Source: an uncultured Verrucomicrobiota bacterium (GTDB taxonomy: Bacteria > Verrucomicrobiota > Verrucomicrobiia > Palsa-1439). Taken from it: a stretch of DNA of 64,000 nt. The translations under genes were made by a program, and so were the position numbers. Of the stretch, positions 1,030-55,782 are shown piece after piece. The DNA lies in NCBI GenBank assembly GCA_964533295.1, contig CAZHLM010000002.1, positions 30,497 through 94,496 of the forward strand. Reading direction: 5' to 3'. How positions within the stretch are numbered: position 1 is the stretch's first letter; the number at the start of each line of letters is the position of its first letter. Below the pieces are notes generated by a model, which was not told where the DNA came from, did no database searches, and worked only from the letters and a program-made list of their open reading frames with translations.

Positions 1030-2223
1030 ATGAATGCCAATAAATTGTTTGTCAATGTGGCCGCGCGGGTTGCTCAGTTTACTCGGCGGGTGGGAATGGT
1101 CTCGCTGGTGGCTTTCGCGGTTTGCAGCCTGCCGGCCAACGCGCAGATTGTCATTCTAAATCACAGTTTCGAAGCAAACACCAATACCGGTGTGGGCTAT
1201 GGCCCAATTTCGGATTGGGGCACCATCGGCGCTGGTGTTGGCATCAACGCGTCGAATGCGCTTGCGGCCAACCGTCCGTTCCTGGGCAGCATTCCGCCGC
1301 GTCACGGCACGAATGTGGCCTTTATTCAGGGTGTGGGTAGTATCACGCAATCCATCTCCGGTTATGACCCGACCAAGCTGTACACTGTGACCTACTTCGT
1401 CAACGAACGTGGTGACAGTAGTTCGTCGGCAATGACTAATATTTCTGTCTCGTTGAACGGGGGCACCACAGTCTACACGAACCAGCACGACAGCATTCGC
1501 AAGACCGACCGGTTTCGTCGGATCGTGAGCGGGCCGCTCGCCGTTTCGGGCGCGACCTCGACACTACGGATCGACTCCGGAGCCCCAGTTGGCGATAGCA
1601 CGTTGCTGCTTGACGCCGTCAGCATCACTCGCGCGGTACCTGCCGTGCCCGATGGCGGGTTCGAGAGACCCAAGCAACCCAACGACCAATTTAAATTGGG
1701 CGGCGGCGCTGGTGGTGGCAGTTTGGCCGGTTCCGCGTGGACCTTCAGTGGTTTCGCCGGTATCGCGGACAACGGCAGTGCATTTAGCGCGCCCACAGCA
1801 CTGGAGGGATCGCAGGTGGGTGTGCTGCAGTCCACCTCTTTCTTCTTCACGGCTGTAAGCGGTTTTGAGAACGGCGTGACATATAGCTTGAGCTTTGAAG
1901 CGGCCGGGCGTGGCGGCGGTTTTGGGCCAAACGAGTTTCGAGTCTTGCTCGACGGCGCACTCCTGTCATTCGGCGGGGTGACCACCAACACACCCACCGT
2001 TGGCAGTTGGACGACCTACACCAGCGATTCGTTTACGACCACGGGAGGTGTGTTTACTCTGCGGTTTGAAGGTCTTAATCTCTTTGACAAGACAAGCTTC
2101 ATTGACGACATCCGGTTCAACTTCATTGCCGAAGCCGCCGTAGTTCCTGAGCCCTCCATGCTTGCCTTGATCAGCCTCGGTCTGGTCGCACTCGGATGGT
2201 GGCATCGTCGGCGGGAGCCGTAG
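1030..2223 (+). CDS. PEP-CTERM-anchored secreted protein (Gly/Thr/Ser-rich beta-sandwich/lectin-like)
   Basis: Signal-peptide-like N-terminus MNANKLFVNVAARVAQF...AFAVCSLPANAQ. The C-terminus VPEPSMLALISLGLVALGWWHRRREP is a PEP-CTERM sorting signal (VPEP + TM + Arg cluster). Start could be 1030 or 1096. Confidence 0.65.
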   Translation: MNANKLFVNVAARVAQFTRRVGMVSLVAFAVCSLPANAQIVILNHSFEANTNTGVGYGPISDWGTIGAGVGINASNALAANRPFLGSIPPRHGTNVAFIQGVGSITQSISGYDPTKLYTVTYFVNERGDSSSSAMTNISVSLNGGTTVYTNQHDSIRKTDRFRRIVSGPLAVSGATSTLRIDSGAPVGDSTLLLDAVSITRAVPAVPDGGFERPKQPNDQFKLGGGAGGGSLAGSAWTFSGFAGIADNGSAFSAPTALEGSQVGVLQSTSFFFTAVSGFENGVTYSLSFEAAGRGGGFGPNEFRVLLDGALLSFGGVTTNTPTVGSWTTYTSDSFTTTGGVFTLRFEGLNLFDKTSFIDDIRFNFIAEAAVVPEPSMLALISLGLVALGWWHRRREP

Positions 2224-2551
2224 CTCAGTGTCGGAACCCGGAAAGACCCCTGCGCTTCTGGAAGTCATTTCCCAGCGGGGCGGAGCAGTATTCAGTTCGG
2301 AGGGTTTTGTCACGTAACCAGCGGCGGTGTCGGCCTTCTCCATCCGGAATCGTTGGCACGCGCGGATCTCGGAGATCATCGTTCTTGCCGCATTGGCTCG
2401 CGCAGTGGTGTCACCTTGGGTTGGGAGGGGCAGAGACTGTGGCTTGCGAGCCGCAGACGCCGTGCGGGTGTTGAAGGAGGTAAAACTTGGTGGCAGCCCG
2501 ATTCGGGCCGGTCCGGTATGATTTGTCTGAGGCCATGCTTCGACCACGGAA

Positions 2552-4312
2552 ATGAAGACGGGGTGGAATACTTGGAACGTGCGGAGCGTGTTATCGCACG
2601 TGCGCTTGCCAGAGGGGGTTGCGATCTTGCTCGGACTGAAAACCTACAGCACCGGGCGGTGTTTGCGGGAGGCGTTGATCGGGCGGAAGGGCAAAGGCGA
2701 TGAAGTGATCGTCCCCGGCCCTCATGCCTACGACGGTTCGTACACGTCGTTGGAACTCGAATGGCACAAGACGAAGATCCGCGTCGAAACCGCGCACGCG
2801 GACGGCGATTGGTTTGCCCGGGTCACGCCGCTGGCGATCCATGTGAAGGCCCCGGCGCTGACGATTGAAGGCGCGGTGTTGTGGAACCGGCCCGGTTGCG
2901 TTCGCCGCGAAGGTGACCGGCTGCGCGTCGGCCCGTTGACCGTCGCGGCGACCGGGACGAAGCGCAACGAGGAGCCGGTCGTCGAGATTCCCGGTCCGTA
3001 TCTGCTTGTGGTACTCGACCAGCCGGTATTCGTGGCGAGCAATCCCGACCGGCTTCCCGCGGCAAACGAGGTCATCGAGAAACGCCGGGCAGAGTTTCTG
3101 GCCAGCCGCAAAGGTCTCAGCGAAGTCCATCACGCCATGCAGACTTGTCTGGCGTGGGACACGATTTACGATCCGTTCAAGGACCGGGTGATCTCGCCGG
3201 TCAGCCGGATTTGGAGCTGCGGCTGGGGCGGGTGGGTGTTGTTCGATTGGGACACCTATTTCGCGGCGTGGATGGCCAGCGTCGAGAACAAGGAACTCGC
3301 CTACGCCAACGCCATCGCCATCACCGAGGAAGTGACCGAGACCGGATTTATCCCCAACTTTGCGATGCCGAGCGGATTCAAGTCGCGCGACCGGTCACAG
3401 CCGCCGGTGGGGGCGCTGACCGTGCAGGCAATCTGCGATCGCGTCGTCGAAACCGCGCTGGCGGAGCGATTGTTTGACACGCTGCTGACATGGAATCGTT
3501 GGTGGCCGGCCCACCGCGACCAGGACGGCTATCTGTGTTGGGGGTCTGATCCGTATGAGCCGGTGACCGGGTGCAGTTACGAGACATTGCCGATCAACAC
3601 CCGGTTTGCCTCGGCGCTGGAATCCGGGTTGGACAACTCGCCGATGTATCAGGACATGCCGTACGATGCGAAGGCGCACCGGATGCAACTGGCGGACGTG
3701 GGACTGATGTCGCTTTACATCGCCGATTGCCGGGCGTTGGCGGACCTGGCGAAGCGGATTGGCCGCAACGAAGTCGTGGCCGAGTTGAATGAGCGCGGCG
3801 ACCGGTATGCCGCGAAGTTGAAAACGCTCTGGTGCGAGAAGACCGGCTTGTTCCTGAACAAGCGGCTCGATACCGGCGAGCTGCAGCACCGGCTTTCGCC
3901 GACGCATTTCTATCCGTTGCTGGCCGGCGTGCCGACGCCGGCGCAGGCGGAGCGGATGATCAACGAGCATTTCTTCAATCCGGCCGAGTTCTGGGGCGAA
4001 TGGATTTTGCCGTCCATCGCGCGTAACGATCCGGCGTATCCCGAACAGAACTACTGGCGGGGCCGGATCTGGGCGCCGATGAACTTTTTGGTCTATCTCG
4101 GCCTCTGCAACTACGACCTGCCGAAAGCCCGGCAGGCGTTGGTGGAGAAATCAGCGGCGTTGCTGCTCAAGGAATGGCGCGAACACGGTCACGTCCACGA
4201 AAACTACTGCGCCGAGACCGGCAACGGTTGCGGCAAGGACAACAGCGACGCGTTCTATCACTGGGGCGGACTGTTGGGCCTGATCAGCGTGCTGGAGCAG
4301 GAGGGCGGATGA
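2552..4312 (+). CDS. Six-hairpin glycoside hydrolase, GH63-like (YgjK / mannosyl-oligosaccharide glucosidase type), cytoplasmic
   Basis: 586 aa, no signal peptide. Motifs DWDTYFAAWM and NYWRGRIWAPMNFLVYLGL are typical of GH63/GH37-clan (alpha/alpha)6 enzymes. Confidence 0.5.
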   Translation: MKTGWNTWNVRSVLSHVRLPEGVAILLGLKTYSTGRCLREALIGRKGKGDEVIVPGPHAYDGSYTSLELEWHKTKIRVETAHADGDWFARVTPLAIHVKAPALTIEGAVLWNRPGCVRREGDRLRVGPLTVAATGTKRNEEPVVEIPGPYLLVVLDQPVFVASNPDRLPAANEVIEKRRAEFLASRKGLSEVHHAMQTCLAWDTIYDPFKDRVISPVSRIWSCGWGGWVLFDWDTYFAAWMASVENKELAYANAIAITEEVTETGFIPNFAMPSGFKSRDRSQPPVGALTVQAICDRVVETALAERLFDTLLTWNRWWPAHRDQDGYLCWGSDPYEPVTGCSYETLPINTRFASALESGLDNSPMYQDMPYDAKAHRMQLADVGLMSLYIADCRALADLAKRIGRNEVVAELNERGDRYAAKLKTLWCEKTGLFLNKRLDTGELQHRLSPTHFYPLLAGVPTPAQAERMINEHFFNPAEFWGEWILPSIARNDPAYPEQNYWRGRIWAPMNFLVYLGLCNYDLPKARQALVEKSAALLLKEWREHGHVHENYCAETGNGCGKDNSDAFYHWGGLLGLISVLEQEGG

Positions 4313-5349
4313 GCATCATGAATTCAGGGGCGTACACGGGTGCGAATGGGGGCCGGTGGTCGGCGGAAAAGGCCAATCAGTGGTATGCGCACCAACCGTG
4401 GCCTTGCGGGTTCAATTATATTCCGGCAACGGCCATCAATTACACTGAGATGTGGATGCCGTATTCTTTTGACGTGAAATTGATCGATCAGGAACTGGCA
4501 CTTGCCGAAGGTGTCGGCTTCAATTGCGTTCGCGTCGTGCTGCCGTTTGTCGTGTGGGAGCATGATCCGGGCGCCTTCAAGCAACGCGTCCGCGACTTTC
4601 TCGCCGTCTGCGACCAGCGCGGTCAGCGGGTGATGTTGGTCCTGTTTGACGATTGCGGCGAGATCAAGAATCCGAAATTCGGGCGGCAACCCGACGTCGT
4701 GAAGGGCGTGTATGCCAACGCTTGGTCAGCTTCGCCGGGGCACGACATGGTGCGCAACCCCGCCACCTGGCCGCGCCTGCGGGACTACGTGACGGACGTC
4801 ATCGCGTCGTTTCAGGACGATCCCCGGGTCTGGGTCTGGGATCTCTACAACGAACCCACGAATAGCGGTCTGGGTGACGCCACTTTGCCCTTGCTGGTCG
4901 AAGTCATTGCTTGGGCGCGTCGCGTGGCGCCACCCCAACCCTTGACGGTTGGCCAATGGAACAAGAACGAAGCCTTGAACAACATCTGCTGGGAGCACAG
5001 CGATATCATCACCTTTCACGACTACAACGGTCCCGACCGGCTGGCCGAACACATCGAATCGTTAAAGAGTCACGGCCGGCCGATCATCAACACGGAATGG
5101 CTCTGCCGCCACCAACAGTCCGTTCCCGAGACGTGCCTGCCGATTTTTCGGCGCGAGAATGTCGGCTGCCTGCACTGGGGGCTGGTCAACGGCCGGACGC
5201 AAACGCATCTGCACTGGGGTTGGACCCCCGACCGGGGCGAACCGAATGTCTGGCAGCACGATCTCTATCACGGCGATCACTCGCCATACCAAGCGGCCGA
5301 ACTCCGCCTTTTCCGCCACGTCATCGCTGGCGAAGCTGGGCGCCGATGA
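4309..5349 (+). CDS. Glycoside hydrolase clan GH-A (GH5-like), paralog 1, cytoplasmic
   Basis: VWDLYNEP (acid/base NEP) and INTEWL (nucleophile TEW). Start MSIMNS chosen at 4309 (ATGA overlap with upstream stop); the Arg-rich upstream extension of the ORF was rejected. Confidence 0.7.
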   Translation: MSIMNSGAYTGANGGRWSAEKANQWYAHQPWPCGFNYIPATAINYTEMWMPYSFDVKLIDQELALAEGVGFNCVRVVLPFVVWEHDPGAFKQRVRDFLAVCDQRGQRVMLVLFDDCGEIKNPKFGRQPDVVKGVYANAWSASPGHDMVRNPATWPRLRDYVTDVIASFQDDPRVWVWDLYNEPTNSGLGDATLPLLVEVIAWARRVAPPQPLTVGQWNKNEALNNICWEHSDIITFHDYNGPDRLAEHIESLKSHGRPIINTEWLCRHQQSVPETCLPIFRRENVGCLHWGLVNGRTQTHLHWGWTPDRGEPNVWQHDLYHGDHSPYQAAELRLFRHVIAGEAGRR

Positions 5350-5402
5350 ACTTTCTGGTTTACCTGTATGACCTGCCGAAAGCCCGGCAAGCGTTGGTGG
5401 AA
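5335..5402 (+). pseudogene. 68-bp relic of the 3' end of the GH63-like gene (duplicate of ~4068-4150)
   Basis: ctgggcgccgatgaactttctggtttacctg...gacctgccgaaagcccggcaagcgttggtggaaaa matches the GH63 C-terminal coding sequence (IWAPMNFLVYLGLCNYDLPKARQALVEK) with a 12-nt deletion. It overlaps the last codons of GH5 paralog 1. Confidence 0.65.
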
Positions 5403-5432
5403 AACACGGAACGTTAATAAAGGATTAGAATT

Positions 5433-6446
5433 ATGCAACGATGGACAGTTGCACAAGCACAAGCCTGGGGTCAGAAGCAACCATGGTTCTTTGGCGCGAA
5501 CTTCACGCCGAGCACGGCGATCAACCAACTCGAAATGTGGCAGGCGGAGACGTTCGACCCGGTCACCATCGAGCGCGAGCTCGGCTGCGCGCAGCGCATC
5601 GGCATGAACATCATGCGGGTGTACCTGCATGATCTGTTGTGGGAGCACGACCGGGATGGTTTCATCGCGCGCATCGACCGGTATCTCGCCATCGCGGCCG
5701 GCAAGGGTATCCGAACGATGTTGGTCATCTTCGACGATTGCTGGCGACCCGAGTTTGCGCTCGGACCGCAGCCGGCGCCGGTGCCGTACACACACAACTC
5801 CGGTTGGGTGCAGTCACCGGGCTACCCGATTGTCGAGGACCCGACGCGCTGGCCGCGCCTGGAGCGGTACGTCAAGGAGCTGCTGACGCATTTCCGTGAT
5901 GACCGGCGGATTGCTGTTTGGGACCTTTACAATGAACCGACCAATTCCGTCGGCGACCCGCTGACCGGCAAGCATCGCCCCATCCTTTCGATGCCGTTTT
6001 TGGAGGCCGTCTTCGAATGGGCGCGGTCGGTCAAAGGACTGACGCAGCCGGTGACGGTGGGTGTTTGGAACGACCGGGAAGATTTGAACCAATTCATCCT
6101 GGAGCGCAGCGATGTGGTGACGTTTCACGCCTACATGGCTCCCGCGAAAGGGTTGCTGGCGCGGATTGAAAAGTGCAAGGCGCGCGGTCGGCCGGTGATT
6201 TGCACCGAGTGGCTGGCGCGTGGGCACGGCTCGACGTTTGCGGACTGTTTGCCGGTGTTCCGCCAACACTGTGCGGGGGCCATCAACTGGGGGTTGGTCG
6301 CCGGCAAGACGCAGACCATTTATCCGTGGGGCTGGAACAAGGAGCGGGGCGAGCCAGCCGTCTGTCATCATGACATCTTCCACAAGGACGGCACGTGGCT
6401 TCACCCCGAGGAAGAAGCGCGGATCCAACAAGTGATCCGTTCCTAG
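5433..6446 (+). CDS. Glycoside hydrolase clan GH-A (GH5-like), paralog 2, cytoplasmic
   Basis: AVWDLYNEPTNS and ICTEWLARG. Clear paralog of 4309..5349 with the same motif order (FNYIP/ANFTP, VLFDDC/VIFDDC, TFHDY/TFHAY). Confidence 0.7.
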   Translation: MQRWTVAQAQAWGQKQPWFFGANFTPSTAINQLEMWQAETFDPVTIERELGCAQRIGMNIMRVYLHDLLWEHDRDGFIARIDRYLAIAAGKGIRTMLVIFDDCWRPEFALGPQPAPVPYTHNSGWVQSPGYPIVEDPTRWPRLERYVKELLTHFRDDRRIAVWDLYNEPTNSVGDPLTGKHRPILSMPFLEAVFEWARSVKGLTQPVTVGVWNDREDLNQFILERSDVVTFHAYMAPAKGLLARIEKCKARGRPVICTEWLARGHGSTFADCLPVFRQHCAGAINWGLVAGKTQTIYPWGWNKERGEPAVCHHDIFHKDGTWLHPEEEARIQQVIRS

Positions 6447-6500
6447 CGAAATTACCGGCGACGTCATGAGGGAAACGAAATGGCCAACTGGGTTGGGGAG

Positions 6501-8066
6501 ATGAAGAGACGGGGAATCATCGTGATCGCCGGCATGCTGGTGTCTTGCTTGGGGGAGGGCGCGGCACCGAGTCTGGCGGAGGATCCCATGGCGCGAGTGG
6601 TTCGATACGCGGATTTCGGGGCCAAGGGCGACGGTCAGTCGGATGACACGGAAGCGATTTGTAACGCCCATGCGTACGCCAACGAGCATGGACGGGCGGT
6701 GCGGGCGGATGCTACGGCCACCTATTACCTCGGCGGACAAGACAAACCGATCGTCATTCAGACCGACACGGATTTTGGGCGGGCGAAGTTCATCATTGAC
6801 GACCGATCCGTCACCAACATTCGGTCGCCGGTGTTTCTGGTTAGTTCCAAGCTGGCCTCCATCAAGATCGAGGGCGTCACGTCGCTAAAGAAGAACCAGC
6901 CAACAATCGCGGCGGTGTTGCCGGGGCGTTGCTTGATCACGGCGGTTAACCGTGCGGTAAAACAATACATCCGCTGGGGGCCGAACCAGGACAGCGGCTC
7001 GGCGCAGACGGATGTGTTCCTGGTGGACGCTGCCGGCACCGTGGACAGCAGCACGCCGATCCTGTGGGATTTCGACTCGATCACCAGCATCGAGGCCAGA
7101 CCGGTGGACCCGACGAAGCTGGTCATTCGCGGCGGACGCTTCACGACCATCGCCAACGCGGCCGAATCCAAATACACGTACTACGCCCGGTGCCTCGCGA
7201 TTCGCCGATCCAACGTGGACGTTGTCGGACTCGAGCACTACGTCGAGGGCGAAGGCGAGCAGGGCGCACCTTACGGCGGCTTTATCAGTATCAGCGATTG
7301 CGCCGACGTGACCGTCCGCGATGCTGTGCTGACCGGCCGCAAGCTGTACCGGACCATCGGCCATGCCGGTGCGCCCGTGTCCATGGGTTCGTACGACATC
7401 TCCGTCAATCGGGCGGTCGGCGTCGAGTTTCTCCACTGCCGGCAAAGCAATGACATACACGATAAGAAATTCTGGGGCATCATGGCCTCCAATTACTGCA
7501 AGAACCTCCGGTACGATGGCTGCACCCTGTCGCGATTTGACGCGCACAAGGGCGTCGGCAACGCGACGATTCGCAACTCGACGATTGGGCACGGCGGCAT
7601 CAGCGTCACCGGCCACGGCATGTTGCTCGCGGAGAACACGACGGTTCGGGCCGGGAGCCTGGTTCATCTGCGTCCGGACTACGGCAGCACGTGGGATGGC
7701 GAGTTGGTCATTCGCCACTGCGTGTTTATGCCGACCGGCGAGGCCACCCTGATCAGTGGCCAGAATCTTGGCCAGCACGATTTCGGGTACCCCTGTCGCC
7801 TGCCGTGGCGGATCACCGTGGACGAGTTGCGAATCGAGGACGCGAATCGTCCGGCCCACTACCGCGGACCGGTTCTCTTTGCGAACTTCAATCCCAAGCT
7901 CACCGGTCCCGGTGACGTGGAGAGATTTCCCATCGTTCGCCCGAAGGAAGTGCATTTGAAAAACGTGAAGACCGCGAGCGGGAAACCGTTGCGGTTGAGC
8001 CATCACCCCTTCCTGTTCCAGGATGTACGGGTGACCCTCGACAACACGAACTGGGAGAAACCATGA
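6501..8066 (+). CDS. Secreted right-handed beta-helix protein (pectate-lyase superfamily; GH28/GH55/GH141-like glycosidase)
   Basis: Signal peptide MKRRGIIVIAGMLVSCLG, then YADFGAKGDGQSDDTEAICNAHAYA, the hallmark N-terminal motif of Pectate_lyase_3/GH28-type beta-helices. Confidence 0.5.
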   Translation: MKRRGIIVIAGMLVSCLGEGAAPSLAEDPMARVVRYADFGAKGDGQSDDTEAICNAHAYANEHGRAVRADATATYYLGGQDKPIVIQTDTDFGRAKFIIDDRSVTNIRSPVFLVSSKLASIKIEGVTSLKKNQPTIAAVLPGRCLITAVNRAVKQYIRWGPNQDSGSAQTDVFLVDAAGTVDSSTPILWDFDSITSIEARPVDPTKLVIRGGRFTTIANAAESKYTYYARCLAIRRSNVDVVGLEHYVEGEGEQGAPYGGFISISDCADVTVRDAVLTGRKLYRTIGHAGAPVSMGSYDISVNRAVGVEFLHCRQSNDIHDKKFWGIMASNYCKNLRYDGCTLSRFDAHKGVGNATIRNSTIGHGGISVTGHGMLLAENTTVRAGSLVHLRPDYGSTWDGELVIRHCVFMPTGEATLISGQNLGQHDFGYPCRLPWRITVDELRIEDANRPAHYRGPVLFANFNPKLTGPGDVERFPIVRPKEVHLKNVKTASGKPLRLSHHPFLFQDVRVTLDNTNWEKP

Positions 8067-8147: not shown

Positions 8148-10331
8148 ATGGGACAATCAATTCTGAAACTTTGTCTCGGGTTGGCGCTGGGCCAAGCCGC
8201 GTTCGCCGAACCGGTGATCTGGACAACCGCGCCGGTCGTCTTGGAGCCGAATCCGCAGAAGCCGATCAAGTATTTTCAGCAAAAGTGGGGTTCATCGGTG
8301 TATCCCATCGGCCATGGCCGGCTCGGCGCGACGATCTACGGCGATGTCGCGGAGGAACGCATCCAGTTCAATGAGGACTCGCTCTGGACCGGCGACGAAA
8401 GCGAAACGGGCCGGTACCAGAACTTCGGGGATATTTTCATCAAGCTCGACGCGACTGCCTTCAGCAATTACCGGCGCGAATTGAATATCGAGCGCGCACT
8501 GCACACGATCACGTATGAAGCGGGCGGGGTGCGGTACCGGCGGGAGTATTTCGCCAGTCACCCGGCCAACGTGATGGTGTTTCGGTTCACCGCCGACAAG
8601 AAGGGCGCGTATACCGGCCGCGTGACGTTGCGGGACGCGCACAAAGCCGAACCGACCGCCGCCGGCAACACGATCACTTGCGCCGGCAAGATCGGCAGCG
8701 GGATCGGGCTGAATTACGAGTCGCAAATCATGCTGTTGAACACGGGCGGCTCGGTCACGGCGACGAATGGGACGTTGACGTTCCAGGGATGTGACAGTCT
8801 GCTCCTGTTGGTGGATGCCGGGACGGATTATCTCAACGAGCGCGCGCGGGGTTGGAAGCAGGCGCATCCGCACGAGAAAATCAGCGCCCGGCTTGCGGCG
8901 GCCGCGAAGCGGTCGTTTGATGATTTGCTGGCGGTACACGAGAAGGATTACCGGCAGTTGTATGACCGGGTGACGCTGGAACTCGGCACGTCACCGGCGG
9001 AGACGCGCACGTTGACGACCGGCCAGCGGTTGGAGGCCTACCGGAAAGGCGCGGCGGACCCGGATTTGGAGGAGATGCTGTTTCAATATGCCCGGTATCT
9101 GATGATCAGCAGTTCCCGACCGGGCGACTTGCCGGCCAACTTGCAGGGGGTGTGGAATCCCTACAACAATCCACCGTGGCGCTCCGATTATCACACGGAC
9201 GTGAACGTGCAGATGAATTACTGGTTCGTGGATCAGGCGAACCTGTCGGAATGTTTTCTCCCGCTCGCCGACTGGGTGAACTCCATCCGGGAGGTGCGGC
9301 GCGAGGCGACGAAGAAAGAGTTTGGCGTGCGCGGGTGGGCGACGCGGTCGGAGAACGGCATTTTTGGCGGCGCGACGTATCATTGGGTGCCCGGCGACGC
9401 GTCGTGGGTTGCACAGAACTTGTGGGATCATTTCGCGTTCACGCAGGACAAGGAGTATCTGCGGACGCGCGCGTACCCGGTAATGAAGGAGCTGTGCGAG
9501 TATTGGGAAGACTCGTTGAAGACGAATGCCGCCGGCAAGCTGGTCGCTCCGAAGAGCCAGTCGCCGGAACACGGGCCGTTTGCGGAGGGCAATTCCTACG
9601 AGCAGCAACTCGCGTGGGATTTGTTCACGAACTACATCGAGGCCTCGGAGGCATTGGGTGTGGACGCGGATTATCGGAAGAAAGTCGCCGCGATGCGCGA
9701 CCGGCTGCTCGGGCCGCAAATCGGGAAGTGGGGCCAGTTGCAAGAGTGGGCGGACGATCTCGACGATCCCAAAGACCAGCACCGGCATCTCTCGCATTTG
9801 AGCGCGGTGCATCCCGGTCGGCAAATCTCGCCGGTGACCACGCCGAAGCTGGCTGAGGCCGCCAAGGTCTCGATGAACGCGCGCGGCGACGGCGCGACCG
9901 GCTGGAGCAAGGCGTGGAAGATTTGCATCTGGGCGCGGCTGCACGACGGCGACCGGGCGTACAAGCTGTTGAGCGAGTTCATCAAGAGAAACGTCTATCC
10001 GAACCTGTGGGGTTTTCATCCGCCGTTCCAGATTGACTGCAACTTCGGTTACGCGGCCGGCGTGGGCGAGATGTTGGTGCAGTCGGATCTTGGCGTGATT
10101 CATCTCTTGCCGGCATTGCCAAAGGCGTGGCCGACCGGCAAGGTGACCGGCCTGCGCGCGCGCGGCGGATTTGAGGTGGACATCGAATGGAAGGATGGGA
10201 AACTGGTGCGCGCGACCCTTCGCAACGTGTCGAGTCCGACCGGCGAGTGCGCGGTACGTTACGGAGACGTCACTGCGAAGCTGTTCGTGCCGAAGGGAGC
10301 ATCCCGTTTGTTTCCAGAAGCGGTAGAGTAG
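8148..10331 (+). CDS. GH95 alpha-L-fucosidase (secreted)
   Basis: GHGRLGATIYGDVAEERIQFNEDSLWTGDE (GH95 N-terminal signature) and DQHRHLSHLSAVHPG. 727 aa with signal peptide. Confidence 0.8.
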   Translation: MGQSILKLCLGLALGQAAFAEPVIWTTAPVVLEPNPQKPIKYFQQKWGSSVYPIGHGRLGATIYGDVAEERIQFNEDSLWTGDESETGRYQNFGDIFIKLDATAFSNYRRELNIERALHTITYEAGGVRYRREYFASHPANVMVFRFTADKKGAYTGRVTLRDAHKAEPTAAGNTITCAGKIGSGIGLNYESQIMLLNTGGSVTATNGTLTFQGCDSLLLLVDAGTDYLNERARGWKQAHPHEKISARLAAAAKRSFDDLLAVHEKDYRQLYDRVTLELGTSPAETRTLTTGQRLEAYRKGAADPDLEEMLFQYARYLMISSSRPGDLPANLQGVWNPYNNPPWRSDYHTDVNVQMNYWFVDQANLSECFLPLADWVNSIREVRREATKKEFGVRGWATRSENGIFGGATYHWVPGDASWVAQNLWDHFAFTQDKEYLRTRAYPVMKELCEYWEDSLKTNAAGKLVAPKSQSPEHGPFAEGNSYEQQLAWDLFTNYIEASEALGVDADYRKKVAAMRDRLLGPQIGKWGQLQEWADDLDDPKDQHRHLSHLSAVHPGRQISPVTTPKLAEAAKVSMNARGDGATGWSKAWKICIWARLHDGDRAYKLLSEFIKRNVYPNLWGFHPPFQIDCNFGYAAGVGEMLVQSDLGVIHLLPALPKAWPTGKVTGLRARGGFEVDIEWKDGKLVRATLRNVSSPTGECAVRYGDVTAKLFVPKGASRLFPEAVE

Positions 10332-10335
10332 CGAA

Positions 10336-12033
10336 ATGACGATCACCCAAACAAAACCTCACCGGCAGTCGGTGGGAAGGAAATGGACCCAGGCTCTGGT
10401 GCTGGTGGCGGCCCTGCTGGTGGCGGGGGTGCGGCTGCGCGCGGCGGAGTTGCCGGCGCGCCCGAATGTGGTGTTGATCATCTGCGATGATCTCAACGAT
10501 TCCGTGGCGGGGATGGGCGGCCATCCGCAGGCCCGCACGCCCCACCTCGAACGGTTGATGGCGCGCGGGGTGCGGTTCGTCAACGCGCAGTGCAATGCGC
10601 CAATTTGCGGTCCGTCGCGGGCCAGCCTGTGGACCGGATTGTACCCGCACACTACCGGCTACTTCGGTTATGCCCAGCAAGCCAACCGCTGGCGGCGCTT
10701 CCCGGCGATGACGAATGCGGTGACCTTGCCGGAACATTTCAAGGCCAACGGCTATCTGGTCGGCGGCACGGGCAAGGTGTTTCACAACGGTCACGAAGAC
10801 AACAGCGTGTGGAGCCCGGCCGACGCGGCGGTCGGGGGCAGCGGCGTGCGCCCGTCGTTCGGGCCGACGCCGTGGGACGGTGCGAAACACGGCACGGGGC
10901 CGGCCGGCAACGGTCATCCGTCCATGCCGCCGCCGTTGAACCAGTTGTTTTGGGGCAGTTTCGGCTCGCTGGCGGATGTGCCGGTGATCCCCGCGGATCC
11001 GGCGCGGAACATTCCCGGCTACGCGGGCTGGCGGTTGGTGGATCGTCCGTTTCGGTACGTGAACGAGACGGACCGGGATCGGATGCCGGATGAGATGAAT
11101 GCCGCGTGGGCCGCGGAACGGCTCCGCCGACCGCAACCGAAACCGTTTTTGATGATCGTGGGGATGAATCGGCCGCATGTGCCCTGTTATGCGCCGCAGA
11201 AATACTTCGATTTGTTTCCGCTGGAGACGATTCAGTTGCCGCCCTACCGCAAGGATGATTTGGCGGACTGCGCGAAGATTCTCTGGCAAGACCCCGCCAC
11301 CGGTGCGCGGCTGGCCGAGGCGGAGGCGTTGTCCCGCTTGTTGGCGGCGGGCGGGGAGACGCTTTGGAAACGCGCCGTCCAAGCTTATCTCGCCTGTGTT
11401 GCGTTTGTGGACGACCAAATCGGCGTCATCCTGGATGCCGTGGAGAACGGTCCGCACGCCAGCAATACCATTGTGATCGTGACCAGCGACCACGGTCTGC
11501 ATTTGGGGGAGAAAGACCACCGGGAAAAAAACACGTTGTGGGAGGAAACAGCGCGGATCCCGTTGGTCATCGCCGGCCCCGGGTTGGCCACCGGCACCTG
11601 TGATCACCCCGTTTCATTGATTGACCTGTATCCGACGTTGATTGATCTCTGCGGGTTGCCGGCGGATCCGAATGCCGGGGGGAATCGTCGGCCGCTGGAT
11701 GGCCATAGTCTGCGACCGTTTCTCCAGAATCCCGCCACCAACCAGTGGGCGGGGCCGGCGGTGGCGCTGACGTGCCGGCCCAGTAGGGAGTCGGTTCCCA
11801 CCAACACTCCCGCGCCCACGGCGCGGCAACACTTCTCGGTGCGTTCCCGCACGCACCGGTACATTTTGTGCGCGGATGGCGCGGAAGAACTCTATGATCA
11901 CCGAACCGATCCCCACGAATGGACGAATCTGGCTTCCCGCCCCGACCAACAGGCCGAGAAAGCGGAACTGAAACGTCAACTCCTGGCCTTGATCGGCCCG
12001 GGACAATCCCCGGCCGCCAAACCCGCGCCATGA
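10336..12033 (+). CDS. Cys-type sulfatase (secreted)
   Basis: Signal peptide; VVLIICDDLND; active-site CGPSRASLWTGLYPH (CxPxR). Confidence 0.85.
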   Translation: MTITQTKPHRQSVGRKWTQALVLVAALLVAGVRLRAAELPARPNVVLIICDDLNDSVAGMGGHPQARTPHLERLMARGVRFVNAQCNAPICGPSRASLWTGLYPHTTGYFGYAQQANRWRRFPAMTNAVTLPEHFKANGYLVGGTGKVFHNGHEDNSVWSPADAAVGGSGVRPSFGPTPWDGAKHGTGPAGNGHPSMPPPLNQLFWGSFGSLADVPVIPADPARNIPGYAGWRLVDRPFRYVNETDRDRMPDEMNAAWAAERLRRPQPKPFLMIVGMNRPHVPCYAPQKYFDLFPLETIQLPPYRKDDLADCAKILWQDPATGARLAEAEALSRLLAAGGETLWKRAVQAYLACVAFVDDQIGVILDAVENGPHASNTIVIVTSDHGLHLGEKDHREKNTLWEETARIPLVIAGPGLATGTCDHPVSLIDLYPTLIDLCGLPADPNAGGNRRPLDGHSLRPFLQNPATNQWAGPAVALTCRPSRESVPTNTPAPTARQHFSVRSRTHRYILCADGAEELYDHRTDPHEWTNLASRPDQQAEKAELKRQLLALIGPGQSPAAKPAP

Positions 12034-12167
12034 CCGGACCGATTCGCAACGTGTCGAATCCGACCGGCTTGCGCGCGGTGTGTGATGGCGACAGGACAAC
12101 CACGCTGACGGAGTCGAAACCGGAATCGTGGTGTTTTGGGACACACAGTCTGAATCACCATGCGCTG

Positions 12168-13292: not shown

Positions 13293-13394
13293 TTGGAGGG
13301 CGCGCATGCCCGTCGTTTGGGGTGCGCGCCGCGAACGACCTTTGCTCTACGCTCTCGGCGGGAAGTCTAAACGACAGGGATTCCCGCCCTACAA
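13293..13394 (+). repeat. Copy 1 of ~100-bp TIR-bounded double-hairpin intergenic element
   Basis: ttggagggcgcgcatgcccGTCGTttggggtgcgcgcc...ggcgggaagtctaaACGACagggattcccgccctacaa. Shares the GTCGT/ACGAC loops and the CGCCCTACAA terminus with copies 2-5. Confidence 0.6.
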
Positions 13395-23582: not shown

Positions 23583-23601
23583 GAAGGGTGCGCCGCGAGT
23601 T

Positions 23602-23704
23602 ATTGCAGGGCGGGCGCGCCAGTCGTCCAGGCTGGCCGCCGTTGGTTCGGGGTTGAACTACGGTCGCGGCGCGAACCCTAAACAACAGGGATTCGCGCCC
23701 GACA
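23602..23704 (+). repeat. Copy 2 of TIR-bounded double-hairpin intergenic element
   Basis: attgcagggcgggcgcgccaGTCGTccaggctggccgcc...ggcgcgaaccctaaACAACagggattcgcgcccgacaa. Confidence 0.6.
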
Positions 23705-23755
23705 ATTCCGGATCGGCTCAAACCTTGCGGGGCGACCCCCATAAGGAGAAAGATT

Positions 23756-35168: not shown

Positions 35169-35256
35169 AGGCGCATCCTACCCGTGCGCCGTCCCACCGG
35201 CAATCCGGCTCATCGAGTCGGGCGCGACTGGGAGTGGCGGTCAACCGAGCGCATTC

Positions 35257-35360
35257 TTGGAGGGCGGGCAGGCCTGTCGTTCAGGCTGCCCGCCGTTGGT
35301 TTGATGCTGGAACAACGCACGCGGCGCGCACCCCCAACGACGGGGATGCGCGCCCTGCAA
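35257..35360 (+). repeat. Copy 3 of TIR-bounded double-hairpin intergenic element
   Basis: ttggagggcgggcaggcctGTCGTtcaggctgcccgcc...ggcgcgcacccccaACGACggggatgcgcgccctgcaa. Confidence 0.6.
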
Positions 35361-41408: not shown

Positions 41409-41435
41409 CTGCGATGGAAAATCTCCGTCCGTCCA

Positions 41436-41536
41436 TTGTAGGGCGGGCAGGCCTGTCGTGCAGGCTGCCCGCCACAAGCGTGGTGGCGCGTCCCCAACGG
41501 CGCGAACCCCAAACGACGGGGATTCGCGCCCTACAA
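41436..41536 (+). repeat. Copy 4 of TIR-bounded double-hairpin intergenic element (most canonical copy)
   Basis: TTGTAGGGCGggcaggcctGTCGTgcaggctgcccgcc...ggcgcgaaccccaaACGACggggattcgCGCCCTACAA. The 10-bp termini are exact reverse complements. Confidence 0.65.
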
Positions 41537-46592: not shown

Positions 46593-46682
46593 CGATGGCT
46601 GTCGTTTAGGAATCGCGCCGCGGACAGGGTTGATCATTCCTCGCGGCGCGCACCCCAAACGACGGGGATGCGCGCCCTGCAA
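46593..46682 (+). repeat. Copy 5 of TIR-bounded double-hairpin intergenic element
   Basis: TTGTAGGGCGcgatggctGTCGTttaggaatcgcgcc...ggcgcgcaccccaaACGACggggatgcgCGCCCTGCAA. Both halves here are near-identical inverted units. Confidence 0.6.
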
Positions 46683-48771: not shown

Positions 48772-50058
48772 ATGAAGCAGCCACCCAACATTCTCTACAT
48801 CCATTCGCACGACACGGGCCGGTACATTCAGCCTTATGGTCATGCGGTGCCGACGCCGAACCTGCAACGGCTCGCGGAACAGGGGGTGTTGTTCCGGCAC
48901 AACTTCTGTGTCAACCCGACGTGCAGTCCGAGCCGGGCGGCGTTGCTGACCGGCTGTTATCCGCACGAGAACGGCATGACGGGGTTGACCCACCGGGGCT
49001 GGCGGTTGAACGATTACCGGCAGCACATCATCCACACGTTGCGCCAAGTGGGCTACACGTCGGCGCTGGCCGGCGTCCAGCACATTGCGCTCAAGCGGGA
49101 TGACCAAATGCCCTGGCAGGTCATCGGGTATGACCAACATGCCGGTCTGGATGGCTGCGAAGGGGCGGTGTCCTTTCTGGAGAATGCGCCGCCGCAACCG
49201 TTCTTCCTCACGGCTGGTTTCGGCGAAACGCATCGCGAGTTCCCGCCGCTGGAGGAATGTCCGGATGATCCGCGGTATTGTCTGCCGCCCGCGCCGTTGC
49301 CGGATGCGCCGCAGACCCGGCAGGACATGGCCCGCTACAAGGCGTGCGCCCGCATCCTCGATGCGAAGATGGGCAAGGTCTTTGATGCGCTGGAGCGGAC
49401 CGGTCTGGCCAGAAACACGCTCGTCATCTGCACAACCGACCACGGCATCGCGTTCCCGCGCATGAAATGCAACCTCGAAGATTCCGGTATTGGCACAATG
49501 CTGATCTTGCGGTTACCGGGCGTGTTCGATGGCGGTCGCGTGGTGGATGCGATGACCAGTCATCTCGACATTTTTCCAACGGTCTGCGAGCTGGCGGGCG
49601 CGCCTGCACCGGCGTGGTTGCGGGGACGGTCGCTGGTGGGGATTGACGGTGAGATTCATGATGCGCTCTTTTTCGAGGTCAACTATCACGCCGCCTACGA
49701 GCCGATGCGCGCGGTGCGGACGAAACGCTGGAAATACATCCGCCGATTCACGGAGCGCGGGCGGCCGGTGCTGGCCAACTGCGATGACAGCCCGAGCAAA
49801 TCGGTCTGGCTGGAACACGGCTGGCCTGATCGGCCGATGCCGACGGAGGCGCTGTACGATTTGGTGTTTGATCCGAACGAGACGAACAACCTTGCCGGCG
49901 AGTCGGTGACGCAGCCGGTTTTGGAAGAGATGCGGGGAAAGTTGGAAGCTTGGATGAAGGAAACGAACGATCCGTTGCGGACCGGCCCGGTCCCGATGCC
50001 GCCGGGCGCGAAGGTCAATAGCGCCGACGATCTTTCGCCCAAGAGAAATCCGACGTGA
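48772..50058 (+). CDS. Cys-type sulfatase, leaderless (cytoplasmic)
   Basis: MKQPPNILYIHSHDTG...CSPSRAALLTGCYPHENG. No signal peptide. Confidence 0.85.
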   Translation: MKQPPNILYIHSHDTGRYIQPYGHAVPTPNLQRLAEQGVLFRHNFCVNPTCSPSRAALLTGCYPHENGMTGLTHRGWRLNDYRQHIIHTLRQVGYTSALAGVQHIALKRDDQMPWQVIGYDQHAGLDGCEGAVSFLENAPPQPFFLTAGFGETHREFPPLEECPDDPRYCLPPAPLPDAPQTRQDMARYKACARILDAKMGKVFDALERTGLARNTLVICTTDHGIAFPRMKCNLEDSGIGTMLILRLPGVFDGGRVVDAMTSHLDIFPTVCELAGAPAPAWLRGRSLVGIDGEIHDALFFEVNYHAAYEPMRAVRTKRWKYIRRFTERGRPVLANCDDSPSKSVWLEHGWPDRPMPTEALYDLVFDPNETNNLAGESVTQPVLEEMRGKLEAWMKETNDPLRTGPVPMPPGAKVNSADDLSPKRNPT

Positions 50059-51527
50059 AACCGAACCTGATCTTTATCTTGGCCGACGACATGGGTTACG
50101 GCGATGTGTCGTGCCTGAATGAGCGGGCGGCATTCAAGACTGTCCACCTCGACCGGCTCGCGGCGGGCGGGATGCGCTGCACCGACGCGCATTCCAGTTC
50201 CGCCGTTTGCACGCCGTCGCGGTACAGCGTGTTGACGGGCCGGTACAGTTGGCGGTCGGTGTTGAAATCAGGGGTGACCGGCGGGTACTCGCGACCGATT
50301 TTGGAGGATGGGCGGCTGACGGTGGCTTCGATGCTGAAGGAGCAGGGCTACCGGACGGCGTGCGTCGGCAAATGGCATCTCGGACTCGAATGGCGATTGA
50401 AGGATGGCGGGATTGCTTCCACGTATCAGGATGAAGCGCAGGTTGATTTTGCCGCGCCGATCACCAACGGGCCGCTCCAGCACGGGTTTGATTATTTCCA
50501 CGGCATCAGCGCCTCGCTCGACATGCCACCCTACGTTTACATCGAGAACGACCGGGCAAGCTCCGTGCCCACAAGACGCTGGGAACAGGTCACCGGCAAG
50601 CGGTTCATGCGGGCCGGTGTGATGGCGGATGACTTCGATCCGCAGACGGTCCTGCCGACGCTGACCGCGAAGGTGGAAACGTTGATTGCCGGGTACGCCG
50701 CTGGCGGGCAGCCGTTCTTTCTCTACTTTCCGTTACCGGCTCCGCACACGCCGATTTTGCCGACGGCGGAGTTTCGCGGGAAATCGGGCACAAACGAATA
50801 CGGGGATTTTTGTTTGCAGGTGGATGACACGGTCGGGCGTGTGATGGCGGCGTTGGAAAAGCACGGGCTGGCGGAGAACACGATCGTGATTTTCACGTCG
50901 GACAACGGTTGTTCGCCGATGGCCGACTTCCCGGAGCTGGCGAGGTTCCACCACCATCCCAGCCACGTGTTTCGCGGCATGAAATCCGACATCTTCGAGG
51001 GCGGGCACCGGATTCCGTTTCTCATCCGGTGGCCGGCGGTGATTGCGCCCGGTAGTCGCTGCGAGCAGACGTTGTGTCTGTCGGACCTGATGGCGACGAT
51101 GGCGGAGATCACGGGCTACCGGCTGCCCGATTCGGCGGCGGAGGACAGCGTGAGCCTGGCGCCGATATTCCGCGACCCGCACTCCGCATTCCGCAGTCCC
51201 GTGGTTCATCACTCGATCAACGGTTCGTTTTCGATTCGGCAGGGACGATGGAAGTTGGAGATGTGCCCGGACTCGGGCGGCTGGAGCGATCCGAAGCCGG
51301 GGTCGACGGAAGCCGCCGCGTTGCCGCCGATTCAGCTTTACGACCTGGCGCAGGACATCGGGGAACGGCACAACGTGCAGGACCGTTACCCGGCAATCGT
51401 GGCGGAGTTGAAACGCCTGCTCACCCGGTATGTCAAAGACGGGCGCAGCACGCCGGGCGTTCCCCAACCCAACACCGGCAGCAAACACTGGCCGCAACTG
51501 CACTGGCTCACCGAACATGAACTGTAA
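50055..51527 (+). CDS. Cys-type sulfatase, leaderless (cytoplasmic)
   Basis: GTG start overlapping TGA (GTGA). MKPNLIFILADDMGYGDVSCLN...CTPSRYSVLTGRYSW. Confidence 0.85.
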   Translation: MKPNLIFILADDMGYGDVSCLNERAAFKTVHLDRLAAGGMRCTDAHSSSAVCTPSRYSVLTGRYSWRSVLKSGVTGGYSRPILEDGRLTVASMLKEQGYRTACVGKWHLGLEWRLKDGGIASTYQDEAQVDFAAPITNGPLQHGFDYFHGISASLDMPPYVYIENDRASSVPTRRWEQVTGKRFMRAGVMADDFDPQTVLPTLTAKVETLIAGYAAGGQPFFLYFPLPAPHTPILPTAEFRGKSGTNEYGDFCLQVDDTVGRVMAALEKHGLAENTIVIFTSDNGCSPMADFPELARFHHHPSHVFRGMKSDIFEGGHRIPFLIRWPAVIAPGSRCEQTLCLSDLMATMAEITGYRLPDSAAEDSVSLAPIFRDPHSAFRSPVVHHSINGSFSIRQGRWKLEMCPDSGGWSDPKPGSTEAAALPPIQLYDLAQDIGERHNVQDRYPAIVAELKRLLTRYVKDGRSTPGVPQPNTGSKHWPQLHWLTEHEL

Positions 51528-52920
51528 GCCCGACGACAGACCCAACTTCATTTTGATCAACTGTGACGACCTCGGCTACGGCGACCTGGGTTGTTACGGG
51601 TCGGCGGTGAACCGCACGCCCGCGCTCGACCGAATGGCGGCGGAGGGAATGCGCTTCACGGATTACCACGTGATGTCGCCGGTCTGCTCGGCGTCGCGGG
51701 CGGCGTTGCTGACCGGCTGTTACCCGCAACGGGTCGGCATGAAAGGCGTGCTGTTTCCCGGCGACGCGATCGGGCTGAATCCGAAAGAGATTACGATCGC
51801 GAAGCTGCTGAAAGGTCAGGGCTACCGGACCAAGATCGTCGGCAAATGGCATTGCGGCGACCAGCCGGAGTTTTTGCCGACGAATCACGGCTTCGATGAG
51901 TATTACGGCCTGCCGTACAGCAACGACATGGGGATTCAGGGGCCGCCCGAAAATCGTCCGCCGTGGCGCGTGCCCTTGCCGCTGATGCGAAACGCCGAGG
52001 TCATCCAACAGCAGCCCGACCAACGCGGGTTGACGGAGCGGTATTGCGAGGAATGCGTCCGGTTCATCCGCGACAACCGGCGCGGACCGTTCTTCCTCTA
52101 CCTCGCGCACATGTACGTCCACGTGCCGTTGTTCGTGCCGCACCGGTTTCTGCGACAGTCCCGCAACGGCGGCTACGGCGGGGCGGTCGAGTGCATTGAT
52201 TGGGCGGCCGAGGTGTTGTTTCACGAGTTGAAGCAGTTGGGCTTGGACGAGAACACGCTGGTCATTTTCACCAGCGACAACGGTTCCCGCGCCAATGGCG
52301 AAGGCGGCAGCAACGCGCCGTTGCGCGGGACGAAGGCCGAGACGTGGGAAGGCGGTCAGCGCGTGCCGTTCATTGTCCGCTGGCCGGGGAAAGTTCCCGC
52401 CGGCAAGGTCTGCCACGAACTCGTCACCGCGATGGATCTGCTGCCGACGTTGGCGCGGTTGGCCGGAACGACCGAACCGCAGGACCGGGTGATGGATGGC
52501 AGGGATATCGCGCCGTTGCTGTTCGACAAGCCGGGAGCCAGGTCGCCGCATGAGAGTTTCTTTTACTACCGGCACGAAAGCCTGCATGCCGTCCGCAAAG
52601 GAAAATGGAAACTCCATTTTCTCCAGGCCGTCGGCTTCGCCAAGCCGCAAGCCGTCGCGCCTGAGTTGTACGATCTCGACCGGGATGTCGGCGAACAACA
52701 CAACGTCGCCGCCGCGCACCCCGAGGTAGTCGCCGAACTCACCGCTCTCGCCGAGCAAGCCCGGCAAGACTTGGGCGACGCTTTTACCGGCGTGGTGGGC
52801 CGGGGGCGACGCGAGCCGGGGCGGGTCGAGAATCCCAAACCGCTCACGACCTACGACGAGAACCATCCGTACATTGTCGCGTGTTACGACATGCCGGATA
52901 CAAATGTGATGGGCGGATGA
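51517..52920 (+). CDS. Cys-type sulfatase, leaderless (cytoplasmic)
   Basis: MNCKPDDRPNFILINCDDLGYGDLGCYGS...CSASRAALLTGCYPQRVGM. 11-nt overlap with upstream gene. Confidence 0.85.
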   Translation: MNCKPDDRPNFILINCDDLGYGDLGCYGSAVNRTPALDRMAAEGMRFTDYHVMSPVCSASRAALLTGCYPQRVGMKGVLFPGDAIGLNPKEITIAKLLKGQGYRTKIVGKWHCGDQPEFLPTNHGFDEYYGLPYSNDMGIQGPPENRPPWRVPLPLMRNAEVIQQQPDQRGLTERYCEECVRFIRDNRRGPFFLYLAHMYVHVPLFVPHRFLRQSRNGGYGGAVECIDWAAEVLFHELKQLGLDENTLVIFTSDNGSRANGEGGSNAPLRGTKAETWEGGQRVPFIVRWPGKVPAGKVCHELVTAMDLLPTLARLAGTTEPQDRVMDGRDIAPLLFDKPGARSPHESFFYYRHESLHAVRKGKWKLHFLQAVGFAKPQAVAPELYDLDRDVGEQHNVAAAHPEVVAELTALAEQARQDLGDAFTGVVGRGRREPGRVENPKPLTTYDENHPYIVACYDMPDTNVMGG

Positions 52921-54317: not shown

Positions 54318-54377
54318 TCCTGCCGGCGCCGGTGCGCTTTTTTGGGGCGGGGCATTTCAACGTAAGGACGGACCACA

Positions 54378-55604: not shown

Positions 55605-55782
55605 CAACCGGTCAAGTACCCAGCGTCATGCGATTGCCACCTCGGATGGATGTGTGGTCGCAAGGTTATGCGGGTTGGTAGCACGATGCCGCCCCGGCAA
55701 ATGTTTCAGTTGGCGGAGTGGCGCGGTGCGTGAAGGAATATCTGGCCGGGAAGATGGCCGCGATTGCGGAATTGGAGTGCGA

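Follow-up and report, generated by a model that had tools for sequence, protein, structure and literature searches.

A pseudogene scar between two GH5-like genes points to stacked GH63-led modules in an uncultured Verrucomicrobiota bacterium

Gene content of the locus

We examined a stretch of 64,000 nucleotides (nt) from an uncultured Verrucomicrobiota bacterium of the lineage Palsa-1439 (contig CAZHLM010000002.1 of GenBank assembly GCA_964533295.1, positions 30,497 to 94,496 of the forward strand; termed here the window), in which a gene of glycoside hydrolase family 63 (GH63) is followed by two genes resembling family 5 (GH5a and GH5b), all on the same strand (+). Between GH5a and GH5b lies a short GH63-derived fragment, the relic, which an initial annotation had taken as the trace of a recent tandem duplication, by unequal crossing-over, of a unit consisting of the GH63 tail and a GH5 gene. 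The layout of the three genes given by that annotation was confirmed by open reading frames (ORFs) and Pfam, and same-species contigs (L001-L004 among the loci compared) have the same arrangement as the window. The features of the locus are listed below (aa, amino acids).

2552-4312, + strand: MGH1-like/GH63-clan glycoside hydrolase gene, intact, 586 aa; assigned from Pfam, sequence matches in the Protein Data Bank (PDB) and homologs
4309-5349, + strand: GH5-like gene a (GH5a), 346 aa; assigned from Pfam PF00150 and an ortholog in L040
5433-6446, + strand: GH5-like gene b (GH5b), 337 aa, intact; assigned from its identity to GH5a and from its own orthologs
4069-4149, + strand: GH63 segment matched by the relic, codons 507-533, WAPMNFLVYLGLCNYDLPKARQALVEK; near-invariant in 120 listed homologs
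4123-4312, + strand: GH63 tail, recombinant in a three-way alignment with the F and T types of L119 (defined below)
5320-5327, + strand: GTCATCGC, sole remaining copy of an 8-nt direct repeat and junction of a 75-nt deletion; two copies in L119
5328-5417, + strand: relic of a second GH63 gene (termed here GH63y), with a core at 5336-5404 and then a decayed continuation to about 5417
5418-5432, + strand: short spacer (AATAAAGGATTAGAATT region) with the AAGGA ribosome-binding site of GH5b, from comparison with L012 and L123

The product of the first gene matches PF22422 at 157 bits (cutoff 27; 9.4e-46) and PF03200 at 43.7 bits (cutoff 22.4), with a further match to PF01204, and its sequence matches in the PDB are the GH63 proteins TTHA0978, glucosidase I and YgjK. 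Scoring above the curated Pfam thresholds, it is predicted to be a GH63-clan (MGH1-like) hydrolase, and its gene, with 120 listed homologs at 58-87% identity, forms the conserved "anchor" of the locus. GH5a passes the family threshold of PF00150 (43.5 bits, cutoff 23.5), and a sequence search of the structure database returned no solved structure for it at E <= 0.001. GH5b reaches only 17.6 bits, under the same cutoff, yet it is 44% identical to GH5a, and "GH5-like" seems a fair label for both. The start of GH5a overlaps the GH63 stop codon (4310-4312) in an ATGA, and a Shine-Dalgarno sequence, GGAGGG, sits within the last GH63 codons. A scan of 4000-6600 for promoters and terminators found none in or near the relic.

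A GH63 relic derived from another gene copy

The relic aligns with the GH63 gene in two blocks: positions 5336-5365 match 4069-4098 at 27 of 30 nt (3 mismatches), and positions 5367-5404 match 4112-4149 at 35 of 38 nt (3 mismatches), the two being split by an in-frame gap of 12 nt such that the codons for GLCN are absent from the relic. A tblastn comparison links relic and GH63 at E = 5e-9. Chance similarity was ruled out, with no match to either block in 100 shuffles (0 expected), and the alignment lies clear of the bound that the initial annotation had set for a chance resemblance (below 70% identity over less than 40 nt). The GH63-derived stretch is thus genuine, and in this respect the idea of a frozen record of a rearrangement stands. 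Likewise, the relic does supply the end of GH5a, whose last six codons and stop (GEAGRR, 5328-5349) are relic-derived and read in a different frame from GH63. However, the fragment is not the last ~75 nt of the GH63 gene, as first described: the codons that it matches, 507-533, are internal ones, the match breaks off 160 nt ahead of the GH63 stop, and no second copy of the true tail (4150-4312) was found either after GH5a or ahead of GH5b.

In the GH63 frame, the relic core differs from the neighboring gene by eight substitutions, seven of which are synonymous and one nonsynonymous (P = 1.5e-4 for at least 7 of 8 under random decay), giving a synonymous divergence (dS) of 0.69 and a nonsynonymous divergence (dN) of 0.019 over 23 codons. 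Because the differences are so largely silent and dS is this high, the relic must descend from a different GH63 copy that was under purifying selection and was inactivated later; we read it as the remnant of a separate, once-functional gene and not, as had been assumed, as a copy of its neighbor. The silent-site distance between the relic and the adjacent GH63 matches that of the L012 and L117 GH63 genes, from other genera, over the same codons. Calling the relic "nearly identical" to the GH63 gene was therefore misleading at this level of dS: it appears young only because no part of the GH63 family is better conserved than the stretch to which it corresponds, WAPMNFLVYLGLxxYDLPxARxALVEKS being almost invariant in the 120 listed homologs. 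None of these homologs lacks the GLCN residues (0/120), and the 12-nt gap therefore arose in the pseudogene. Assignment of the relic to a particular known GH63 copy was dropped: against the window GH63, both L116 copies and the genes of L012, L117, L005 and L006, it differs at 11-20 of 71 nt with mixed states that are not diagnostic.

Beyond the core, the spacer at 5418-5432 may hold the last codons, the TAG stop and the 4-nt spacer of GH63y. In L012, the basis of this comparison, the GH63 stop TAG, 4 nt and the ATG of the GH5b ortholog follow one another, and sequence upstream in L123 also resembles the spacer, the similarity being weak. A scan of 127 fetched loci and the whole window for further GH63 relics found them only in the window's species and in the L119 lineage.

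Divergence of the two GH5-like genes

GH5a and GH5b share 55.6% of their nucleotides, and with a saturated dS of 1.8 and a dN of 0.52 they are ancient paralogs. Each has closer relatives in other lineages and contexts: GH5a has a 79% ortholog in L040 and others at 60-69% in dozens of metagenome contigs, and GH5b has orthologs at 76-78% in metagenome-assembled genomes (MAGs) of Victivallales, Lentisphaeria and Verrucomicrobiota. A recent unequal-crossover duplication, with GH5b as its product and the relic as the duplicated GH63 tail, would readily account for a fragment of the upstream gene lying between two homologous, head-to-tail genes on one strand, and also for the presence of GH63 3' pieces ahead of both GH5 genes in L119, a related locus described below. 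However, such a duplication implies low and even divergence along the unit, whereas divergence is saturated between the GH5 genes and already considerable in the relic, and it implies a head-to-tail junction colinear into the second copy, whereas the relic holds internal codons only, lacks the 160-nt tail, comes from another GH63 copy and, in L119, jumps from about codon 553 to about codon 11 of GH5b. The more distant MAG L012, with GH63 (84% identity), 4 nt and a GH5b ortholog (78%) but no GH5a, also speaks against it; as a single-copy relative it speaks less clearly, the gene wanting there being GH5a, which has independent orthologs elsewhere. We consider recent tandem duplication refuted and its remaining probability very small. 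The initial observation is thus partly confirmed and its interpretation partly supported: GH63 3' part plus GH5 is indeed a repeating module of the ancestral locus as seen in L119, but the two parts were not duplicated together and the fragment is not the tail.

Pairs of neighboring GH5-like genes recur, with many examples on unrelated contigs from metagenomes and genomes. A GH5-like paralog lies directly ahead of a GH5a-clade gene (the paralog being 45-50% identical to GH5b) in L024, L033, L044, L047, L059, L064, L068, L070 and L091, and L078 has such a pair in reverse order; this recurrence hints at a functional partnership of the encoded proteins.

Within the species, GH5a is interrupted in L001 and L003, which are independent assemblies (Logan SRR16893471 and JGI 3300006865). 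The substitution A4963T turns Lys219 (AAG) into a TAG stop and splits the gene into 218 + 124 aa, while the window and L002 have it intact. Judging from these reading frames, GH5a appears to be dispensable in part of the population.

A related lineage with a longer relic

Loci L119-L122, which share 92-94% nt identity with the window, were located via the 90% protein cluster of GH5a. The gene order in L119 is an IS110 transposase (IS, insertion sequence), GH63 (593 aa), a GH29 fucosidase, a GH63 tail fragment, GH5a, the relic, a scrap of GH5b and an unrelated gene of 1183 aa, such that a GH63 3' part followed by GH5 occurs twice: tail fragment plus GH5a, then relic plus GH5b scrap. The tail fragment corresponds to codons 525-586 (called as a 63-aa ORF), and the fucosidase stop abuts codon 525 exactly, in an ATGA overlap. 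GH5a of L119 has 351 aa and a C-terminus that differs from that in the window, ending in RHVIAESRTNPCTRMY before its stop. The relic is longer than in the window (about 190 nt) and decayed, and covers GH63 codons ~490-553 before giving way to the scrap, which corresponds to GH5b codons ~11-24.

Because this longer relic has the same 12-nt gap as that of the window, both the relic and the gap predate the split of the two lineages. In their common ancestor the relic was joined to GH5b, and the two lineages then trimmed it in different ways. Only the first GH63 gene is intact, and the GH63 remnants are more decayed further downstream: in L119, indels and numerous nonsynonymous changes mark the relic, and three nonsynonymous changes the tail fragment. 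In addition, the L119 relic has the consensus KSEAL-type codons, as opposed to KSAAL in the neighboring GH63.

These observations bear on the idea that a break at the GH5a/GH5b junction was repaired with templated "filler" DNA from the neighboring GH63, which became the relic and has decayed since. Its shortness, its place at the junction and its look-alike 1.27 kb away on the same strand are all compatible with such an origin, but non-coding decay would have hit all codon positions, which the excess of synonymous differences contradicts, and a relic of about 190 nt that is KSEAL-type, unlike its neighbor, and runs into a piece of GH5b is not what copying from that neighbor would leave. We regard filler DNA as extremely improbable, the least credible of the origins considered.

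The surroundings of the L119 block (5125-6095 and flanks) differ from those of the window: genes for a 6PGD protein and the IS110-family transposase lie upstream and the 1183-aa gene downstream, none of which occurs in the window. Either the block moved or its flanks were rearranged, possibly with the involvement of IS activity.

Deletions and a recombinant GH63 tail

Deletion between direct repeats is RecA-dependent for long repeats, and slipped-strand or microhomology-mediated for short ones. Where the window has one copy of GTCATCGC, L119 has two, at 11012 and 11087 and thus 75 nt apart, and the extra L119 sequence between them contains the original end and stop of GH5a followed by relic sequence colinear with GH63 codons ~490-503. 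This colinearity marks the extra sequence as ancestral and the window state therefore as a 75-nt deletion. As the alignment indicates, the deletion took the original C-terminus and stop of GH5a together with the 5' part of the relic, and fused the RHVIA of GH5a to the relic-encoded GEAGRR, giving GH5a a new stop. The window relic has also lost its codons from about 538 to near the end; L119 instead lost the relic end and nearly all of GH5b.

We then compared the tail of the window GH63 with the full-length GH63 (F) and the tail fragment (T) of L119. Over 4123-4198, the window differs from F at 4 of 76 positions and from T at 14 of 76, whereas over 4199-4266 it differs from F at 7 of 68 and from T at none of 68; past 4290 and into GH5a it is also of the T type. 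Informative sites divide 10:0 before the change and 2:7 after it (Fisher p = 7e-4), and the p-value for a recombinant tail over 4123-4312 is 1.5e-6. These patterns show a chimeric tail that is F type over 4123-4198 and T type over 4199-4312, with a crossover at 4198/4199. Entry of the cassette into a window-like ancestor by homology-facilitated illegitimate recombination, with a crossover upstream of 4123 or with duplication, was excluded, because T would then not differ at 14 of 76 positions on one side of the crossover and at 0 of 68 on the other. This crossover between the ~190-nt tail repeats separates the two lineages: the fucosidase cassette was either lost in the window by direct-repeat recombination or gained in L119 by a mirror-image single crossover. 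Loss in the window is a tentative reading, as an outgroup comparison of the first half of the L119 tail fragment, which bears on the direction, found no close relative. Both the loss of 75 nt between the GTCATCGC copies and the addition or removal of a cassette by crossover between ~190-nt repeats are textbook cases of deletion between direct repeats.

GH63 sequences also carry tracts of gene conversion and allelic recombination. The window and L001 are 99.5% identical in GH63 except for a 180-nt tract at 2951-3130 (84%), in which the resemblance is to the L116 copies (93%) for the window and to L119 (88%) for L001, as would be left by allelic recombination or gene conversion. In L116, a close relative, two tandem GH63 genes (339-2120 and 2123-3784) are 98-100% identical over their first ~700 nt and about 82% over the remainder, a contrast that indicates concerted evolution by gene conversion.

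Assembly of the locus

Among relatives, the gene directly after GH63 is of seven kinds: GH5a, a fucosidase, GH5b, another GH63, a beta-helix/PDZ protein, an AP_endonuc_2/GFO protein or an uncharacterized gene (loci compared: the window, L005, L006, L012, L116, L117/L118, L119, L126 and L127). GH63 is followed by the fucosidase in L117/L118, and tandem full-length GH63 pairs occur in L116 and L006. Look-ups of P0127, P0128, P0004 and P0006 returned only L119-type copies or new, unrelated downstream genes.

Taken with the relic, these arrangements make it probable, in our view, that 5328-5417 is the pseudogene scar of GH63y, a gene that once stood directly upstream of GH5b, as GH63 does today in L012, and that GH63-led modules were stacked at this locus with erosion of the redundant GH63 copies. 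Modules made up of GH63 and a downstream partner gene would have been brought together, GH63 with GH5b before GH63 with GH5a, and in the sister lineage also GH63 with the fucosidase, the order of arrival being what the arrangement suggests. Recombination would most likely have been anchored on the left in highly conserved GH63 sequence and closed on the right by an illegitimate join in the 3' region of the resident GH63, that is, by homology-facilitated illegitimate recombination (HFIR) leading to sequential displacement. Each such event would keep one functional GH63 at the 5' end and push the truncated 3' piece of the prior GH63, with its intact partner gene, downstream. Later trimming in the window lineage would then comprise the deletion between the GTCATCGC repeats and a further one of the 3' codons of the relic, and recombination between the GH63-tail repeats at 4198/4199 would explain a fucosidase cassette that is present in the sister lineage and absent here.

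That the joins were made by HFIR, rather than by insertion of whole modules and erosion from the 5' side, is what we infer from the scars, because the original joins have since been modified, a donor with GH63 directly ahead of GH5a turned up in none of the 38 loci whose upstream sequence sufficed, and the other route yields the same end state. In that other route, complete modules (GH63-fucosidase, GH63-GH5a and GH63-GH5b) arrived in tandem and the redundant GH63 copies were lost by ordinary 5' deletions, with no join inside GH63. Deletion does wear down bacterial pseudogenes, and this relic itself records two more such losses; tandem full-length GH63 genes exist; and 3' pieces could persist as carriers of the ribosome-binding site of the next gene, as with the GGAGGG of GH5a in the last GH63 codons. 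However, this route needs more events, the scans turned up no intermediate that keeps more of the 5' part, and the fucosidase stop abutting codon 525 in L119, like the GH5a end abutting the relic, resembles a single clean join and not the residue of erosion. Whole-module arrival is accordingly unlikely in our estimation.

Much the same standing, at best, belongs to an ancient tandem duplication of GH63 plus GH5, after which gene conversion would have kept the GH63 copies alike while the GH5 copies diverged and the second GH63 eroded recently. Tandem GH63 pairs (L116 and L006) and the conversion seen between the L116 copies give this scenario a basis, and the silent-site difference of the relic (0.45 over 23 codons) is only marginally under the saturated 0.68 of the GH5 genes. 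It is less likely because, judging by identities, the GH5a and GH5b clades are distributed independently: in distant lineages both occur without an adjacent GH63 (0 of 38 loci have one for GH5a, and 5 of 6 close GH5b loci with enough upstream sequence lack one). Moreover, adjacent GH5 paralogs elsewhere are usually ordered b-like then a-like with no GH63 between them, and the divergence between the GH63 genes of the window and L012 (84%) keeps pace with that of GH5b (78%), as it should if they are orthologs of the GH5b-linked copy. We consider ancient duplication improbable.

Several observations nevertheless weigh against stacking by displacement. The expected donor order, GH63 directly ahead of a GH5a ortholog, is the one missing from all 38 GH5a-clade loci for which 1.8 kb or more of upstream sequence was available; adjacency of GH63 and GH5b is seen in one MAG only (L012), and none of the five other GH5b ortholog loci (66-78%) whose upstream sequence is long enough has a GH63 there. 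Eight other GH63 loci contain no GH63 relics. The L119 block is flanked by other genes on both sides and lies next to an IS110 transposase, and its descent may not be simply vertical; integration and excision of the fucosidase leave mirror-image patterns, so that this event fits either direction. Finally, the dS of the relic core comes from only 23 codons and has a wide error, and in L119 the flanks have decayed more than the core itself, possibly a sign that gene conversion acted on it later.

Comparison with known systems

Jackson et al. 2009 reportedly treat displacement arrays in rhs, contact-dependent inhibition (CDI) and type VI secretion system (T6SS) loci, and de Vries & Wackernagel 2002, Prudhomme et al. 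2002 and Meier & Wackernagel 2003 are said to be the sources on HFIR. An HFIR origin has been proposed for such sequential or C-terminal displacement arrays, including rhs loci, the cdiA-CT/cdiI orphans of CDI and the T6SS effector-immunity modules of Vibrio cholerae (PMC5361080), and HFIR itself occurs in naturally transformable bacteria (PMC5361080; PMC3240628). In these arrays, as at this locus, a conserved 5' homologous anchor receives an incoming downstream module, the old 3' end of the anchor and its partner are shifted downstream and kept as "orphans", and with each repetition another 3' fragment joins the string, the older ones being more decayed. The GH63 loci share each of these traits: a conserved anchor is followed by differing downstream modules (the seven kinds of gene), orphan 3' fragments of the anchor each precede an older partner (the relic and GH5b in the window, and two such fragments in L119), and the orphans stem from other alleles, the older being more decayed. 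The donor orders looked for were found for the fucosidase (L117/L118) and for GH5b (L012), but not for GH5a.

The locus differs from those arrays in other ways. Its modules are all glycoside hydrolases by Pfam and belong to a polysaccharide-degradation cluster, not toxin or immunity genes; for this reason we liken the locus to a displacement array in the way it works and do not count it among the toxin systems. What is displaced of GH63, its 3' end, is conserved and not variable, the variable part being a separate downstream gene, and the displaced partners remain intact and are probably expressed, with growth of the operon as the net effect. Furthermore, the pattern has so far been seen in one lineage only. 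With HFIR the locus would share a homologous crossover, placed in a conserved gene, that is paired with an illegitimate join and sets foreign DNA beside an anchor, whereas here the mechanism is read from sequence scars alone, both original joins having been modified since, along with any microhomology at them.

Other features of the window

A second scar of the same design lies downstream in this operon. About 50 nt from the 3' part of a GH95 gene (8148-10331), namely 10219-10268 (LRNVSSPTGECAVRYGD), recur at 12043-12092 with 82% identity, including 26 nt with one mismatch. This GH95 relic directly follows the stop of a sulfatase gene (10336-12033) and falls within the called N-terminus of a 409-aa GH71/99-like gene (starting at 12030). 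Homologs of the latter lack its N-terminal part (81-88% query coverage; nearest usable homologs at 59%), and its real start is probably the signal-peptide-like MIWFTTVLAG.... The scar after the sulfatase hints that the stacking mechanism may be general. Whether conserved GH63, and perhaps other glycosidase genes such as GH95, act as recombination anchors for the stacking of carbohydrate-active enzyme genes in bacteria of the Planctomycetes-Verrucomicrobia-Chlamydiae (PVC) group is a tentative suggestion, which we hold as possible but doubtful.

GC-rich palindromic repeats of about 40-100 nt (CGCGGCGCGCACCCCAAACGACGGGGATGCGCGCCC...) are scattered over the window (13354-13394, 23665-23705, 35320-35360, 41496-41536 and 46642-46682, with flanking parts at 23595-23647, 35249-35301 and 41428-41480) and look like intergenic elements of the repetitive extragenic palindromic (REP) type. 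At 48900-57500, five or more paralogous sulfatase genes with conserved motifs in common (repeat families D1, D3 and D8) stand in a row. Such a row, alongside the GH95, GH29-like and GH63 genes, would be typical of a region for the degradation of sulfated fucan or another sulfated glycan.

Implications

Taken singly, the locus is ordinary: a pseudogene scar and well-understood deletions. Two cautions for annotation follow from it, namely that where a coding segment is strongly conserved, high nt identity is no sign of a recent copy, and that relic codons enter the calls of neighboring genes, as they do at the GH5a C-terminus and, in the 409-aa gene at 12030, at the N-terminus. It also offers a worked example, from an uncultured PVC bacterium, of the assembly and pruning of a glycan-degradation cluster, in which cassettes came and went at a conserved gene by steps that can still be read. 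If the pattern is common, relics of this kind could help to establish the order of acquisition events in polysaccharide utilization clusters, and displacement stacking would not be limited to toxin loci. If the reading of GH63 as an anchor is true, sequential displacement would build polysaccharide-degradation operons, leaving datable 3' scars behind.

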